DNA of 44,776 nt from a virus (taxonomy: Duplodnaviria; Heunggongvirae; Uroviricota; Caudoviricetes), in IMG/VR virus record IMGVR_UViG_2648501797_000002, positions 1-44,776 of that record; one strand, 5' to 3'. How positions within the stretch are numbered: the stretch's first letter is position 1; every line of letters starts with the position of its first letter. The position numbers were made by a program, and so were the translations under genes. This document shows positions 8,730 through 43,768 of the stretch, piece by piece. The notes below the pieces were generated by a model, which worked only from the letters and a program-made list of their open reading frames with translations, was not told the DNA's origin and ran no database searches.

Positions 8730-9584
8730 ATGGCAAATACTGCCGAAGTAATCAATTTCCCTGTGCCTGTCGTGGCACTACAGGAGCTGCGCGTGGCAGA
8801 TCTCGACGATGGGTTTACGCGCATCGCCAATGAGCTCCTTGAAGCTGTCATGCGTGCGGGTCTGTCGCAGTATCAGCTTTTGGTGTTCATGGCTGTCATG
8901 CGCAAAACATACGGTTTCAACAAGAAATCTGACTGGGTCAGTAACGAGCAGCTCTCGGAGCTGACCGGCATTCTCCCGCATAAGTGCTCAGCTGCAAAAA
9001 GCGTCCTGGTTAAGCGGGGGATATTAACTCAAACCGGTCGTGTTATCGGGATTAATAAAACGGTCAGCGAATGGTCATCTTTACCCGTAAAAGGTACAGA
9101 AAAGAAACATTACCTGAAAAAGGTAACATTACCCGAATCAGGTAAGAAAAGTTTACCCGAATCAGGTAACGCCTATTACCCGAATCAGGTAAACACAAAA
9201 GACAAACATACAAAAGACAATAAAGACAATATTAATAACCCCCCTAAATCCCCCCGGGCGGTTTCGTTCGATGCGTTAGCTGTTCAGTTGCCTGACTGGC
9301 TTTCTGCAGAAATCTGGTCGTCATGGGTGGCATATCGTCGCGACCTGAAAAAGCCGATCAAGTCTCAGCAGACGGTCACCCAGGCTATCAACCTGCTGGA
9401 CCGCTGCAGACTGAACGGTTACTCGCCCGAAGAAATTATCAACCGCAGCATCGCCAATGGCTGGCAAGGCCTGTTTGAGCCAAATGGTGCCAAGCCTCAA
9501 CCAAGTCAACAGGTGCGAGTTGCCGAAAATTTCTCAGGGAAGGATTACGGGCAGACTGAAATCCCATCATGGGCGAGGGACTGA
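8730..9584 (+). CDS. Replication initiation protein O-like
   Basis: N-terminus resembles lambda O (VADLDDGFTRIANELLEA...MRKTYGFNK); contains iteron repeats internally. Confidence 0.85.
   Translation: MANTAEVINFPVPVVALQELRVADLDDGFTRIANELLEAVMRAGLSQYQLLVFMAVMRKTYGFNKKSDWVSNEQLSELTGILPHKCSAAKSVLVKRGILTQTGRVIGINKTVSEWSSLPVKGTEKKHYLKKVTLPESGKKSLPESGNAYYPNQVNTKDKHTKDNKDNINNPPKSPRAVSFDALAVQLPDWLSAEIWSSWVAYRRDLKKPIKSQQTVTQAINLLDRCRLNGYSPEEIINRSIANGWQGLFEPNGAKPQPSQQVRVAENFSGKDYGQTEIPSWARD
9108..9195 (+). repeat. Origin iterons: three TTACCCGAATCAGGTAA repeats plus a degenerate fourth, followed by an A/T-rich tract, inside the O gene
   Basis: Direct repeats read in sequence at about 9108-9195; lambda-type ori architecture. 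Confidence 0.6.
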
Positions 9585-9586
9585 TC

Positions 9587-10438
9587 ATGGAACTGGAAGA
9601 AAAAATCACTGCCATTGAGCGGATGCTTGATCAGCTGAGTAAGCCACCGGAAGACATCCCGAATTGCGAGGTGGTTATCGAGCGCGTCTGTTGCGAAAAA
9701 CATGGCGAGTATGAGCAGCGTAAGCGGATCCTGACCAGCAGCATCATCAATCTGCCATCACCGCCGACACGCTGCCCGGGCTGCCTGCAAGACGAACTGA
9801 ATTTTCTGAAGGATGAAAAGGTTCGCTGGGATAAGCGAGTTCGCCAGCAAACTGCAGAAAGGCTGCTTCGCCAGCTGGACATACCAGAGCGATTCTCCAC
9901 GTGCACTCTGGACAGCTACAAGCCTGTTGGGAAGGATTCTGAGCGAGCATTACGGGTCTGCCAGGCCTACGCATCGAAATGGACTGATCGCCTCCAGCAG
10001 GGCGGTGGGTTGGTTATGTGTGGCAAGCCTGGTACCGGTAAAAACCACCTTGCGCTGGCCATTGCCCGTCATGTGATTGAGCACCACCAAAGCTCAGTCA
10101 TTTTCACGACGGCGCTGAAGATTGCCCGGGAGTTTAAATCGACCTGGTCAAAAACAGCCACGCGCACTGAGGATGAGGTGATCCGCTACTTCACGAAGCC
10201 AGACCTTCTGATTGTCGATGAGGTTGGTGTGCAGTTTGGCAGCGAAGCCGAGAAGATGATCATGTTTGAAATCATCAACACCCGCTACGAGCGCCTGAAG
10301 CCGACGATCCTGATCAGCAACCTGCCGAAGGATGAGCTGACGCAGTTTATCGGCGAGCGCGTCATCGACCGCATGAACGACGGCGGCGGCTGCACGATTT
10401 CGTTTACCTGGGACAGCTATCGGGAGAACCGGTCATGA
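9587..10438 (+). CDS. DnaC/IstB-like AAA+ helicase loader with N-terminal Cys-rich region
   Basis: Walker A (GKPGTGKNHLA) and Walker B (LLIVDEVG); N-terminal CxxC pairs; start at ATG 9587 with GAGGGA RBS. Confidence 0.8.
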   Translation: MELEEKITAIERMLDQLSKPPEDIPNCEVVIERVCCEKHGEYEQRKRILTSSIINLPSPPTRCPGCLQDELNFLKDEKVRWDKRVRQQTAERLLRQLDIPERFSTCTLDSYKPVGKDSERALRVCQAYASKWTDRLQQGGGLVMCGKPGTGKNHLALAIARHVIEHHQSSVIFTTALKIAREFKSTWSKTATRTEDEVIRYFTKPDLLIVDEVGVQFGSEAEKMIMFEIINTRYERLKPTILISNLPKDELTQFIGERVIDRMNDGGGCTISFTWDSYRENRS

Positions 10439-15805: not shown

Positions 15806-15880
15806 GCATCTGTCGTAGTTTGGTAATTACATCTGGCTTCCAACCAGAAAATGCGGGTTCGATCCCCGCCAGATGCTCCA
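15806..15880 (+). tRNA. Phage-encoded tRNA-Gly (anticodon UCC)
   Basis: 75-nt cloverleaf folded by hand: 7-bp acceptor stem, D-loop with GG, anticodon loop CUUCCAA, T-arm GCGGG-TTCGATC-CCCGC, discriminator U, CCA end. Confidence 0.75.
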
Positions 15881-17388: not shown

Positions 17389-18186
17389 ATGTCAAGCGAG
17401 GACAAAATTATGGCAACACCGGACTGGGAGGCCATCGAATCGGCATACCGGGCCGGAGTCCTTAGTCTCCGTGATATAGGCGATAAATACGGCGTTACTG
17501 AAGGGGCTATCAGGAAGAGGGCTAAAAAGTTTGATTGGGTACGCAAGGCCAGTACGCAGGTACGCAAAAATGGTACGCAAAGTGGTACGCAAAAGAGTAA
17601 GGCGCGTACCAGCGAAAAGCCTGCCAGCTCTGGCCGTACGCAAAAAAGTACGCAACCAAAATCCGAACCTCCACCAGATACGAAACCGATACGCGGGGTG
17701 CGTACCGATCCGCCGACCAACCCATTCCAACCCGGCAACCAGCAGGCGTTAAAGCATGGTGGCTACGCCCGCCGCCTTCTGCTTAAAGATGAGGTCATTG
17801 AAGACGCGAAGGCGTTGACACTCGAAGACGAATTATTTCGCCTTCGGGCTAACAACCTTGTCGCCGCAGAGAATATTGGCCGGTGGTTGACCAAGCTGGA
17901 TGATGCTGAAGGGGACCAGGAAAGAAAGGTGTTGATGGAAAATATCAGCGCCGCCGAGAAGGCGATGATGCGCAATACCGTTCGTATTGAGTCCATCGTC
18001 GGCACGCTTGCGACGGTAGGCAAAATATTTGCTGATACAGACTATCGCAAGGCTGCTACTGATAAGGTGTCGCTGGAGGCTGATCGTCTTCGCCGTGATG
18101 CAGGTATTGATGATGGCAACGGAGAGCGTGACCTCAATGACTTCTACTCTGACATCCAAACCGACGCTGAATCCGGTCCTGCGTAG
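17389..18186 (+). CDS. Terminase small subunit
   Basis: N-terminal HTH-like region, position directly upstream of terminase large subunit; contains GTACGCA repeat cluster. Confidence 0.65.
   Translation: MSSEDKIMATPDWEAIESAYRAGVLSLRDIGDKYGVTEGAIRKRAKKFDWVRKASTQVRKNGTQSGTQKSKARTSEKPASSGRTQKSTQPKSEPPPDTKPIRGVRTDPPTNPFQPGNQQALKHGGYARRLLLKDEVIEDAKALTLEDELFRLRANNLVAAENIGRWLTKLDDAEGDQERKVLMENISAAEKAMMRNTVRIESIVGTLATVGKIFADTDYRKAATDKVSLEADRLRRDAGIDDGNGERDLNDFYSDIQTDAESGPA
17539..17654 (+). repeat. Cluster of seven direct GTACGCA(A) repeats (plus one inverted copy) within the terminase small subunit gene; candidate pac/TerS-binding site
   Basis: Repeats read directly at 17539, 17552, 17560, 17573, 17585, 17636, 17648. 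Confidence 0.5.
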
Positions 18187-19537
18187 CTTCTGGACGACGC
18201 AGGCGCGTAACAAAGTGCTTTATGGTGGCCGGTCATCGTCAAAATCGTGGGATGCCGCTGGCATAGCCATATTTCTGTCGAATAAATACAGCCTGCGCTT
18301 TTGCTGTGCACGTCAGATCCAGAACAAAATTGAAGAGTCGGTATATACCCTGCTCAAAATTCAGATTGACCGCTTTGGCCTGCGGCATCGCTTCCGCATT
18401 CTGAACAACAAAATCATTAACCGGGTGACCGGGTCTGAATTCGTCTTTTATGGGCTCTGGCGCAACATTGAAGAGATTAAGTCTCTGGAAGGTATCAGCG
18501 TTCTTTGGCTTGAAGAGGCCCACGCGCTGACGGAATACCAGTGGAAGATACTGGAGCCTACCATCCGTAAAGAGGGCTCAGAGTGCTGGTTTATCTTTAA
18601 CCCCGGACTGGTGACTGATTTCGTGTGGCGTAACTTTGTGGTCGATCCGCCAGAAGATACGCTGATACGCAAAATCAACTACGATGAAAACCCCTTTTTG
18701 TCCGACACCATGCTGAAGGTTATCGAGGCCGCTAAGCGCCGGGATCCGGATGGGTTTAAGCACGTCTACGAAGGTGTGCCAGAGTCGGATGATGATGCGG
18801 CCATTATCAAGCTGTCATGGATTGAGGCGGCCGTTGATGCCCACAAAGTCCTTAATTTCGAGCCGAGCGGGCGTAAGCGTATTGGCTTCGACGTTGCTGA
18901 TAGCGGCGCCGATAAGTGCGCTAACGTCTATCGTCACGGCTCCGTCGTGTACTGGGCGGATGAGTGGAAGGCGAAAGAAGACGAATTGCTGAAGAGCTGC
19001 CAGCGTACCTATCAGGCGGCACTGGAGCGTGATGCTGATATCGTCTACGACTCAATCGGCGTTGGGGCATCTGCTGGCGCGAAATTCTCAGAAATTAATG
19101 AGGATCGTAAGCGCGAAAATATGAATGCATCCCGCATCAATTATCAGCGATTCAATGCTGGCGCTGGTGTGAATGAGCCGGACTACGAATATATTGGCAT
19201 CCCGAACAAGGATTTTTTCGCCAACCTCAAAGCGCAAGCCTGGTGGCTGGTGGCGGATCGCTTCCGTAACACCTTCAACGCGGTAAAGAACGGCGAGCAG
19301 TACCCGGTAGATGAGCTGATAAGCATCGACTCATCCTGCCCGCTGCTGGAAAAGCTCAAGCTGGAACTTACCACCCCGCACCGTGATTTTGACAAAAACG
19401 GTCGCGTGATGGTGGAAAGCAAGAAAGACCTCGCAAAGCGTGACGTACCATCGCCGAACGTGGCCGACGCGTTCATCATGGCGTTTGCTCCAACCGATAC
19501 GGCAATGGATATCTGGGAAGCGCTGGGAAACAGCTAA
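18137..19537 (+). CDS. Terminase large subunit
   Basis: Walker-A-like VLYGGRSSSKSWDAAG near the N-terminus; about 465 aa; start codon ambiguous (18110-18137). Confidence 0.85.
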   Translation: MTSTLTSKPTLNPVLRSFWTTQARNKVLYGGRSSSKSWDAAGIAIFLSNKYSLRFCCARQIQNKIEESVYTLLKIQIDRFGLRHRFRILNNKIINRVTGSEFVFYGLWRNIEEIKSLEGISVLWLEEAHALTEYQWKILEPTIRKEGSECWFIFNPGLVTDFVWRNFVVDPPEDTLIRKINYDENPFLSDTMLKVIEAAKRRDPDGFKHVYEGVPESDDDAAIIKLSWIEAAVDAHKVLNFEPSGRKRIGFDVADSGADKCANVYRHGSVVYWADEWKAKEDELLKSCQRTYQAALERDADIVYDSIGVGASAGAKFSEINEDRKRENMNASRINYQRFNAGAGVNEPDYEYIGIPNKDFFANLKAQAWWLVADRFRNTFNAVKNGEQYPVDELISIDSSCPLLEKLKLELTTPHRDFDKNGRVMVESKKDLAKRDVPSPNVADAFIMAFAPTDTAMDIWEALGNS

Positions 19538-19774: not shown

Positions 19775-21226
19775 ATGGCGAAGAAAACAGGACGAGTCGC
19801 CACGGCGGATTCGTACGATAACTTTGTTGCCCGTGTCGGTATGCAGCAGCCTAACCAGCATGCCGCATCGACCTACAGGGCGAACTATACCAGCCGCAAC
19901 CGCCTGCTCATCGAGTGGGCTTATCGTTCCTCCTGGATTATTGGTGCCGCAGTCGATTCGAAAGCGGACGATATGACCAAAAAGGGCGTGCGGATCACCA
20001 GTGAGATTGACCCGAAACGTCGTGGCGTTCTGGAATCGCGGTTCGATGAGCTTCAGCTCTGGGATTGCATCAACGAGACGCTGAAATGGTCCCGGCTGTA
20101 TGGCGGGGCGGTGGCGCTGATTCTGATTGAAGGTCAGGCACCGCTGACGCCGCTGGTGCTGGATAAGGTTGGCAAGGGCAGCTTTAAAGGTCTGGCTGTA
20201 CTTGACCGCTGGATGATTAACCCGCAGCTCACCAGGCGCATTAAGGCGCTTGGCCCTAACCTCGGCAAGCCTGAATTCTATGAAATCGTGACAACGGCGC
20301 AGGGGCTTCCTCCTTGGACTGTTCACCACAGCCGCCTGATCCGCATGGATGGTGTGAAACTGCCGTATCAGCAGAAAATCACCGAAAACGAATGGGGGAT
20401 GTCCATTGTCGAGCGCATCTTCGATCGCCTGACTTCCTACGATAGCACCAGCGTCGGCGCCGCCCAGCTTGCCTACAAGGCACATCTGCGAACGGCAAAG
20501 ATTAAAAAGCTGCGTGAAATTATCGCCACAGGCGGTAAAGCGTTTGAGGCGCTTATCAAGAATATGGAAATGGTCCGCCAGTACCAGACGAACGAGGGTA
20601 TGTCCCTGTTTGATTCGGAGGACGAATTTGAAACACATTCCTATTCTTTCGCGGGCCTGTCTGACCTGCTTAGCGAGTTTAAAGAGGATATCGCGGGCGC
20701 TGTTGGCATTCCTCTTGTCCGCCTGTTCCGCCAGTCACCGAAGGGTTTTTCAACCGGTGACGCTGACCTTGCGAACTACTATGACGACGTGGGAACGCTT
20801 CAGGAGCGAGATTTACGGCCTCACATCCGCCTGTTATTCGATGTACTGCATCGCTCAGAGTTTGGCGAGCCGTTGCCGCAAGATTTCACTTTTGAGTTTA
20901 ACCCCCTGTGGCAGATGAGCGACACCGATCGCTCTACGGTGGCGACCAACACGACTACCGCTCTGGCAACCGCGGTGCGTGATTTGGGAATGTCGCCGGC
21001 TGCTGCGCTGACCGATTTGCGCGAGCTGTCTGACGTTACCGGCATCGGTGCTTCAATTAGCGATGAGGATATCCAGAATGCGGCGAAACAGTGGCAGGAG
21101 ACTGAATCTGAAACCAGCCCTCCGCCGCCGATCGGAGGTCCAGTATCAGAAAAGCCTACTGGCGATAGTCGACCAGATAAATCAAATCGTCACGGGTTCC
21201 TACGATGGTTCACAGGCAAGCGCTGA
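19775..21226 (+). CDS. Portal protein
   Basis: 483-aa ORF immediately downstream of terminase; size and position typical. Confidence 0.7.
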   Translation: MAKKTGRVATADSYDNFVARVGMQQPNQHAASTYRANYTSRNRLLIEWAYRSSWIIGAAVDSKADDMTKKGVRITSEIDPKRRGVLESRFDELQLWDCINETLKWSRLYGGAVALILIEGQAPLTPLVLDKVGKGSFKGLAVLDRWMINPQLTRRIKALGPNLGKPEFYEIVTTAQGLPPWTVHHSRLIRMDGVKLPYQQKITENEWGMSIVERIFDRLTSYDSTSVGAAQLAYKAHLRTAKIKKLREIIATGGKAFEALIKNMEMVRQYQTNEGMSLFDSEDEFETHSYSFAGLSDLLSEFKEDIAGAVGIPLVRLFRQSPKGFSTGDADLANYYDDVGTLQERDLRPHIRLLFDVLHRSEFGEPLPQDFTFEFNPLWQMSDTDRSTVATNTTTALATAVRDLGMSPAAALTDLRELSDVTGIGASISDEDIQNAAKQWQETESETSPPPPIGGPVSEKPTGDSRPDKSNRHGFLRWFTGKR

Positions 21227-43693: not shown

Positions 43694-43768
43694 TGGTGTC
43701 CCCTGCAGGAATCGAACCTGCAATTAGCCCTTAGGAGGGGCTCGTTATATCCATTTAACTAAGAGGAC
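43694..43768 (-). tRNA. argW: tRNA-Arg (anticodon CCU)
   Basis: 75-nt cloverleaf on the minus strand: acceptor GTCCTCT/AGGGGAC, anticodon loop CUCCUAA, T-arm GCAGGTTCGATTCCTGC, CCA end. Confidence 0.9.

Follow-up and report, generated by a model that had tools for sequence, protein, structure and literature searches.

A heptamer array inside a phage small-terminase gene is probably the recognition site of the terminase subunit encoded by the same gene

To what end does a phage repeat the same seven nucleotides within the coding sequence of its small terminase subunit, and is it as DNA or as peptide that the repeats are read? The question is raised by the tailed-phage record IMGVR_UViG_2648501797_000002, analysed over its whole length of 44,776 nucleotides (hereafter, the window), in which copies of the heptamer GTACGCA are crowded into terS, the gene for the small terminase subunit (TerS), next to terL, the gene for the large one (TerL). 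A preliminary description had put the array forward as a candidate packaging-recognition (pac) site. The present analysis lends support to this proposal, the array being the only cluster of its heptamer in the window, conserved at the level of DNA, coupled to the recognition helix of the helix-turn-helix (HTH) domain of TerS and accompanied by a TerL of the headful Sf6 type. Together with the exchange of domain and array as one cassette and the capture of the array alone by other elements, these comparisons of sequences make it likely, in our judgment, that the array is the cognate recognition site of the TerS from the same gene, and most probably the recognition part of the pac site.

An exact search located GTACGCA on the plus strand at 17539, 17552, 17560, 17573, 17585, 17636 and 17648, that is, the seven direct copies that had been counted in about 115 bp of terS (17539-17654, 116 bp), where arithmetic from the shuffle background gives an expectation of about 0.005 copies for a single-strand stretch of this length. 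Over both strands of the whole window the heptamer occurs 12 times, against 4.0 ± 1.9 times in dinucleotide-preserving shuffles, 0 of 100 of which reached 12; the five copies outside the array lie isolated in the 44.8 kb, and in relatives the flanks of the array (about 1.9 kb) contain practically no copy. The direct copies form a left cluster of five (17539-17591, plus strand, with spacings of 13, 8, 13 and 12 bp) and a right cluster of two (17636-17654, plus strand, in 12-bp units GTACGCAAAAAA), separated by a 44-bp spacer. Six of the seven extend to GTACGCAA, and G precedes four of the copies, giving the consensus (G)GTACGCAA(A). The single inverted copy of the preliminary description exists in full, as TGCGTAC on the minus strand at 17699-17705, but 45 bp beyond position 17654, where the array had been taken to end; inside that limit there is only a partial one with a 6/7 match, GCGTACC at 17604-17610 (minus strand, the reverse complement of GGTACGC), in whose place several relatives have the full TGCGTAC. 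Tandem Repeats Finder called 17559-17595 alone (12-bp unit, 2.9 copies), so that the larger part of the array is no simple tandem repeat.

As had been noted from the translation, the array encodes a segment rich in threonine and glutamine (WVRKASTQVRKNGTQSGTQKSKARTSEKPASSGRTQKSTQ), and it could be a coding low-complexity repeat, a product of slippage of a 12-bp unit in a tolerant linker with no function as DNA. Such an origin would suit the 12-bp tandem repeat just mentioned, the predicted disorder of the linker, in which relatives tolerate in-frame insertions and deletions of four amino acids, and the in-frame 12-bp changes by which the number of direct copies varies among relatives from 3 to 10. 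Most of this variation comes from the GTACGCAAAAAA units of the right cluster, which counts five copies in locus L031, one in L002, and is missing in Aeromonas phage pAEv1818 and in the short-type terS genes described below; direct copies total 10 in L031, 8 in L026, 5 in L002 and 3 in L062 and L071, in phages that are otherwise 87-99% identical and whose left cluster is nearly invariant. A plain coding repeat would have a constant period, a single frame and conservation of the peptide only, whereas the array is spread over two frames, both strands and spacings of 8, 12 and 13 bp. In the frame starting at 17410, copies 1 and 3 are read as GTA-CGC-AAx (VRK), while copies 2, 4, 5, 6 and 7 are read as xGT-ACG-CAx (STQ, GTQ, GTQ, RTQ and STQ, respectively), the first base of the codon varying and the GT remaining constant; the inverted copies are read as xxG-CGT-ACC, namely ART for the partial and VRT for the full one in the window, and V/A/M-RT overall. 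Synonymous sites within the heptamers are conserved as well: over 79 distinct homologous genes, the mean entropy at third codon positions was 0.31 bit in the heptamers, against 0.65 for the remaining linker positions and 0.79 elsewhere in the gene, with values of almost zero for the columns of the left cluster. Furthermore, the same heptamer follows the same HTH in differing peptide contexts (VRK vs. GTQ), valine codons switch in concert from GTA to GTT when the helix changes, and heptamers are retained in the non-coding DNA of genomic islands (both detailed below). Slippage contributes to copy number, and it cannot explain the mixed frames and strands; a mere coding repeat is thus highly improbable and, as far as the alignments tell, the repeats are selected as DNA and not as peptide.

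The sequence of the heptamer changes together with the predicted recognition helix of TerS. Across a pooled set of 191 distinct regions the class of the helix predicts the heptamer in 190: EGAIRK is accompanied by GTACGCA in 140 of 141 regions, HGAINK by GTATCCA in 33 of 33, DTAIRK by GTTCGC in 12 of 12, and EAAIRK or DGAIRK again by GTACGCA in 5 of 5. Among the loci collected by protein similarity, each (T/S)EGAIRK helix precedes three to nine GTACGCA copies, while SDTAIRK, found in three IMG/VR loci (L162-L164) and in Pseudomonas phage Shamal, goes with GTTCGC repeats, and the THGAINK helix of Pseudomonas phage USP_25 with GGTATCCA repeats. In L162-L164 the peptide still reads VRK, VRA and VRS, all three valine codons having passed synonymously from GTA to GTT alongside the change of the helix from EG to DT. 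The reverse scan, in which viral contigs were searched for triples of each heptamer, gave the same pairing, as GTTCGC triples situated after a TerS HTH had SDTAIRK in 9 of 9 cases and GTATCCA triples (T/S)HGAINK in 37 of 37; about 69% of the sampled GTACGCA triples followed an EGAIRK-type HTH, the remainder being plain tandem repeats, e.g., collagen-like GTQ runs. The spacing of successive direct copies is 12, 13 or 15 bp in all three classes. Outside the six helix residues, the DTAIRK protein of L162 shares 91% identity with an EGAIRK member, 88% with an HGAINK member and just 67% with the DTAIRK members of Pseudomonas type; the HGAINK members L469 and L532 likewise share 91% with an EGAIRK member. 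Since scaffolds that are about 90% identical are found across classes, the covariation of helix and site does not merely reflect shared ancestry or three old clades. The helix residues EG..R. define, on these alignments, a specificity class paired with GTACGCA, and the R-to-N change in the helix coincides with a CG-to-TC change in the site, as would be expected from the loss of an arginine-guanine contact.

Domain and array also appear to travel together. The TerS of Aeromonas phage pAEv1818 (L085), with 55% amino acid identity, has five direct copies and one inverted copy of GTACGCA at the same place, and the succession of a direct array and an inverted copy is common to the window, pAEv1818 and Erwinia phage vB_EhrS_49 (L090). 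The latter belongs to a short type of small terminase (170-210 aa), present also in Edwardsiella phage Edno5, Salmonella phage SEN34 and Klebsiella phage 2b LV-2017, in which the same HTH is joined to an unrelated C-terminal domain; here three direct GTACGCA copies come immediately after the HTH, all in frame 0 and read as VRK, VRT or VRS (LVRKAEVRKQVRT). Long-type genes have one additional adjacent pair of heptamers at 8-bp spacing, and an inverted copy follows the array in the long type and in a minority of the other arrays. From nt 265 on, terS of Chronis and terS of Klebsiella phage RothC (L086) show 97-100% identity; they are unrelated between nt 15 and 265, where RothC encodes a different N-terminal domain and has, instead of GTACGCA, five copies of TGCGAAT/ATTCGCA at nt 144-190. 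This mosaic indicates that a single cassette of about 250 bp, comprising the DNA-binding domain and the array, is swapped between phages; its bounds are the conserved 5' end of terS and the codons for TKPIRG (17680-17697 in the window, plus strand), kept in all full-length homologues. The site lies only some 10-200 bp from the codons of the domain that would read it, so that both can be inherited or exchanged as a unit. Sequence comparison also indicates that the cassette combines with different large terminases, the TerL of the window being 75% identical to that of Edno5 and without detectable similarity to those of pAEv1818 or RothC. The Chronis/RothC module boundary adjoins the array, and arrays occur in mosaic islands, which could point to a recombination hotspot for the exchange of terS modules or to binding of the heptamers by some other host or phage factor. 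However, the points of exchange fall at the conserved 5' end of terS and in the TKPIRG codons instead of in the heptamers, and a third-party binder would not explain why the heptamer tracks the helix residues of TerS in near-identical scaffolds; we regard this possibility as very unlikely.

The array was also found on its own. In L195 and L205, recovered by the GTACGCA scan, and in chromosomal loci of Serratia (L537-L539), Shimwellia (L553) and Rosenbergiella (L552 and L554), three to five direct and one or two inverted copies have no HTH-coding sequence upstream, and lie 40-650 bp from an open reading frame (ORF) of 136-150 aa resembling the C-terminal part of TerS only. One or other of these loci has genes for a P4-type integrase, excisionase-like products, SSB, a primase, DUF2280 or Abi/antitoxin cargo, a content that gives the elements an island- or satellite-like character. 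Their homology to the window is confined to approximately 17560-17705, the full inverted copy forming its distal edge, and within it 44 of 50 heptamer columns are identical as compared to 54-62 of about 101 spacer columns, while in the flanks 8-21 of 60 positions match, which is the level of chance. A further Serratia island (L540) carries a TGCGAAT array of the RothC type instead, and related islands in Pectobacterium and Brenneria have no array. Phage-inducible chromosomal islands of enterobacteria copy the packaging site of their helper phage, carrying cos sites (PMC6739421, PMC9026076); by their sequence, the islands described here may be phage satellites that mimic the pac site of a helper phage and are mobilised thereby.

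The covariation speaks for specificity of binding and not for its purpose, and the array, lying inside the terS-terL transcription unit, could be an operator through which TerS regulates its own synthesis, by repressing transcription through terS-terL or their translation, with the packaging site elsewhere. Direct and inverted copies are able to pair in the mRNA, whose predicted fold has a z of -1.9; this is weakly better than shuffled sequences and not significant, and the direct copies are conserved as well as the inverted ones. No sigma-70-like promoter overlaps the array, nor does any Rfam family, and readings of the array as a structured RNA or a promoter were dropped on these grounds. 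Moreover, arrays persist in the non-coding DNA of islands devoid of this TerS, a finding more in line with a packaging signal acting in cis. An operator is also less parsimonious and leaves the islands unexplained, and the role established for DNA binding by TerS is that of recognising packaging sites. Autoregulation is accordingly an improbable explanation.

Recognition of the pac site by TerS is in keeping with the organisation of the gene and of its surroundings. terS extends from 17410 to 18186 (plus strand, 258 aa) in the canonical position between the lysis genes and terL; its reading frame is open from 17389, and the ATG at 17410 is the likely start because nearly all database homologues (258 aa) begin with the MATPDW encoded there. 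The product matches PHROG phrog_370, 'terminase small subunit', at E 6e-101, confirming the identity that had been given to the gene containing the array. Pfam returned no match for TerS at E ≤ 0.01, including none to the SPP1-type G1P family, and a sequence search of the PDB gave nothing relevant, with no match to gpNu1 or SF6 G1P. The AlphaFold2 model, built on an alignment of 25 sequences, has low overall confidence (mean predicted local distance difference test, pLDDT, 66.5; predicted template modelling score, pTM, 0.36). Within it, an N-terminal three-helix HTH domain (aa 1-45, 17410-17544, plus strand) is predicted with helices at residues 6-15, 20-27 and 31-40 (pLDDT 80-87), the third being the putative recognition helix EGAIRKRAKK (17500-17529, plus strand). 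It is followed by a linker predicted to be disordered (aa 46-102, pLDDT 30-41), whose coding sequence (17545-17715, plus strand) holds the array, and a C-terminal part with a long helical hairpin at residues 127-230 (pLDDT mostly above 90). A profile of the N-terminal domain gave weak PDB matches to generic HTH regulators only (LrpA, 1I1G, E 0.017), and the domain alone, used as query, found 1448 cluster representatives; Foldseek comparison of the model with the PDB returned no small terminase and nothing at E ≤ 0.001, only generic hairpins (Vipp1, ESCRT-III and AcrA). TerL (18137-19537, plus strand) matches Pfam Terminase_3 (E 3.5e-40) and, over residues 10-450, gp2 of Shigella phage Sf6 (PDB 4IDH, E 8e-80), a headful packager (PMC9611059). 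The candidate starts of terL are TTG 18029, ATG at about 18098 and ATG 18137, according to which it overlaps the end of terS by 50-158 nt, and relatives in GenBank differ in the start annotated. The portal protein gene lies downstream at 19775-21226 (plus strand; Pfam Phage_portal_3, E 3.5e-103). Overall, the window is that of a Klebsiella temperate phage, its DNA being 95-98% identical to the Klebsiella temperate phages GZ7, Mulock, ST405-OXA48phi1.2 and Wanchaivirus PDP110P2.

The properties looked for in a pac site were location in or next to the small-terminase gene, a headful-type large terminase, a single recognition locus per genome and specific recognition by the cognate TerS; the first three were found directly, the TerL being a homologue of Sf6 gp2, and the fourth is suggested indirectly by the relation of helix class to heptamer. 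The established function of DNA binding by TerS is the recognition of the packaging site, and it is on account of this role that binding of the array would be expected to start packaging. TerS presumably forms a ring that displays several N-terminal HTHs, each on a flexible linker, and each recognition helix would read one heptamer. Heptamers spaced by 12-15 bp, with one or two inverted copies, would allow several subunits to bind simultaneously, so that many weak contacts could sum to specific binding at one locus of the concatemer. The Sf6/P22-type large terminase, recruited by TerS in this bound state, would next cut nearby and so begin the headful packaging series. In the structures solved, small terminases form rings of 8-12 subunits whose HTHs face outward (PMC11331095). 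As a rough estimate, DNA wrapped on a nonamer would follow a path of roughly 110 bp, i.e., about 12 bp per subunit, which is compatible with neighbouring HTHs contacting neighbouring heptamers. Physical binding, ring stoichiometry, the position of cleavage and the direction of packaging are, in this proposal, what we infer.

Comparable arrangements are known from other packaging systems, although none coincides with that of the window. In phage lambda, the R3, R2 and R1 elements of cosB are bound by the winged HTH of gpNu1, and lambda and phage 21 have distinct packaging specificities; lambda packages by way of cos and has, besides cosN, where nicking takes place, an IHF site and R elements of about 16 bp situated upstream of Nu1. 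Both systems have several short repeats at or within the small-terminase gene that are read, in the window presumably, by the HTH at the N terminus of TerS, and in both, changes in the helix accompany changes in the repeats, giving discrete packaging specificities that for the window are presumed. Unlike cosB, its elements are of 7-8 bp, more numerous and placed within the coding sequence, and its terminase is of the Sf6/P22 headful type; membership of the lambda system was rejected because of this TerL and because TerS shows no sequence homology to gpNu1 in Pfam and PDB sequence searches.

The repeats of P1 pac are TGATCA/G hexamers under Dam control, lying inside pacA in two clusters around the cut. 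P1 has seven hexanucleotide repeats (PMC11260489). The window likewise has seven short direct repeats, within the recognition-subunit gene of what is probably a headful phage, and here they fall into groups of 5 + 2. The right cluster, though, ranges from one to five copies in relatives and can be missing, and the terminase proteins are unrelated (a phrog_370 TerS and an Sf6-like TerL vs. PacA and PacB). With their GATC, the P1 hexamers are subject to regulation by methylation. GATC is absent from every copy of the array, for which reason a P1-like reading was rejected. Another resemblance to P1 pac was noticed in an Stx1-converting phage of the 933W type (L089), whose terS has at nt 141-185 four 12-bp units (C/T)GATCATGAAAT, each with a Dam GATC site, behind a different N-terminal domain; about 200 records of Stx phages have this gene.

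In SPP1 and SF6, pac consists of direct-repeat boxes A, B and C that span the start of the small-terminase gene (PMC4737164). Like the window, they have sets of direct repeats at terS and a TerS whose N-terminal HTH is displayed, in the window presumably, on a ring. The isolated HTH of SF6 has little preference for the box repeats, which are poorly conserved between SPP1 and SF6 (PMC4737164), whereas the heptamers of the window are strictly conserved and covary with the helix; the protein families also differ, and the window TerS, with neither a Pfam match nor a PDB match to SF6 G1P, was not assigned to the G1P family. In P22, pac is a 22-bp asymmetric site inside gene 3 (PMC9611059, PMC11260489), plasmids with the pac site are transduced (PMC11260489), and TerS is without a well-defined HTH DNA-binding domain (PMC11331095). 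Common features are a pac site, in the window a candidate one, inside terS of an enterobacterial headful phage and a TerL of a related clade, while a single asymmetric site differs from an array of seven direct and two inverted heptamers. In its proposed function the array looks like lambda cosB/gpNu1 transposed to a headful phage, and in layout it is similar to P1 pac; it is a member of neither family.

Outside packaging, an instructive parallel is within the same window. A lambda-type origin lies inside the O gene, its iterons being 17-bp palindromes, and the window has an apparent origin of this type, with five near-palindromic TTACCYGAAWMAGGTAA iterons at 9106-9192 in an O-like gene (ORF 8730-9584), followed by an A-rich tract of AAAGACA repeats (iterons and tract together within 9106-9231), and a DnaC/helicase-loader-like ORF at 9569-10438. 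In both cases an array of putative binding sites occupies the linker-coding part of the gene of its own binder, so that protein and site travel together, although the origin serves replication initiation, not packaging, through another protein family. Arranged as in that origin, the GTACGCA copies are direct repeats spaced by about one helical turn within the gene of the protein supposed to bind them, which might suggest that they are themselves iterons of a replication origin. Since the iterons and the neighbouring A/T-rich tract of a canonical O-like initiator are already present in the window, and since it is with a small terminase, encoded beside terL, that the heptamers covary, such a role is extremely improbable.

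Several points weigh against a recognition site read specifically by TerS. The HGAINK and DTAIRK loci were mostly gathered by means of the motif itself, a biased sampling, and independent switches of specificity are few, probably three to five. Pantoea phage PdC23 (L087/L560) has the sole EGAIRK-type TerS without an array in its gene, where degenerate heptamers were also sought and none found; its packaging signal may lie elsewhere or be of another mode. In the best-studied pac phages, SF6/SPP1, P22 and Sf6, DNA binding by the isolated TerS or its HTH is weak and shows little specificity for sequence, and the box repeats of SPP1 are irrelevant to binding by the DNA-binding domain (PMC4737164, PMC9611059), so that a repeat array in a pac region is in itself no proof of specific read-out. 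Part of the array may consist of inconsequential slippage products, given a right cluster of one to five copies that is absent in distant relatives. No report of virion ends, PhageTerm analysis or binding assays was found in the literature for this phage or its relatives, and the GenBank records RCIP0034/0098, which break inside terS, were rejected as evidence of a mapped end, these being rotated records that start 12 bp before terL.

Elsewhere in the literature, the genome paper of Mulock contains nothing about packaging, a full-text search for 'GTACGCA' returned primers and the like only, and no description of this TerS family or of its repeats was found in the work on pac sites, terS and repeats. 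The pac site of ES18 is unknown (PMC11260489), and its TerS is unrelated to that of the window and has no repeats. In PdC23, genes for an HNH and a homing endonuclease were observed just upstream of terS, and the TerL is annotated as similar to that of Chronis.

Beyond the window, we lean slightly towards a wider reading of these sequences, according to which a large family of small terminases would achieve base-specific read-out of heptamers spaced by 12-15 bp through HTHs displayed on a ring. It would use a code of three states (EG..R reading GTACGCA, DT..R reading GTTCGC and HG..N reading GTATCCA) carried by a portable packaging-specificity cassette that phages swap; integrase-bearing islands of satellite type would copy nothing but the site, so as to have themselves packaged by phages of the corresponding class. 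Pac recognition by the small terminases of headful phages has been called unclear and controversial (PMC9611059, PMC11331095), and the family, if so interpreted, would run counter to the current general view of pac-type small terminases, by which their contacts with DNA are only weak and not sequence-specific. It offers what the model systems lack, namely a short and exactly defined site with options for fully synonymous recoding, and several naturally occurring classes of specificity, set apart by two or three residues of the helix on near-identical scaffolds, owing to which binding, helix-swap and transduction experiments would be straightforward to design. The same rule would allow pac sites to be predicted from sequence in hundreds of temperate phages of Klebsiella, Salmonella, Serratia, Pseudomonas and other hosts, would predict the starting points of lateral transduction in lysogens, and would flag islands that these phages possibly mobilise.

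Tandem copies of the HTH were also observed in single database chains, of which P0174, P0179 and P0194 carry four to eight; two TerS-like chains (P0170 and P0172) carry two copies with differing recognition helices, e.g., TEGAIRKRAK followed by SDAAIVKRAK. As for the rest of the window, a tRNA-Gly(TCC) lies at 15806-15880 (plus strand), just upstream of the lysis genes, and a tRNA-Arg(CCT) at 43694-43768 (minus strand), about 1 kb from the right end, where it may mark a prophage attachment site and the host flank.

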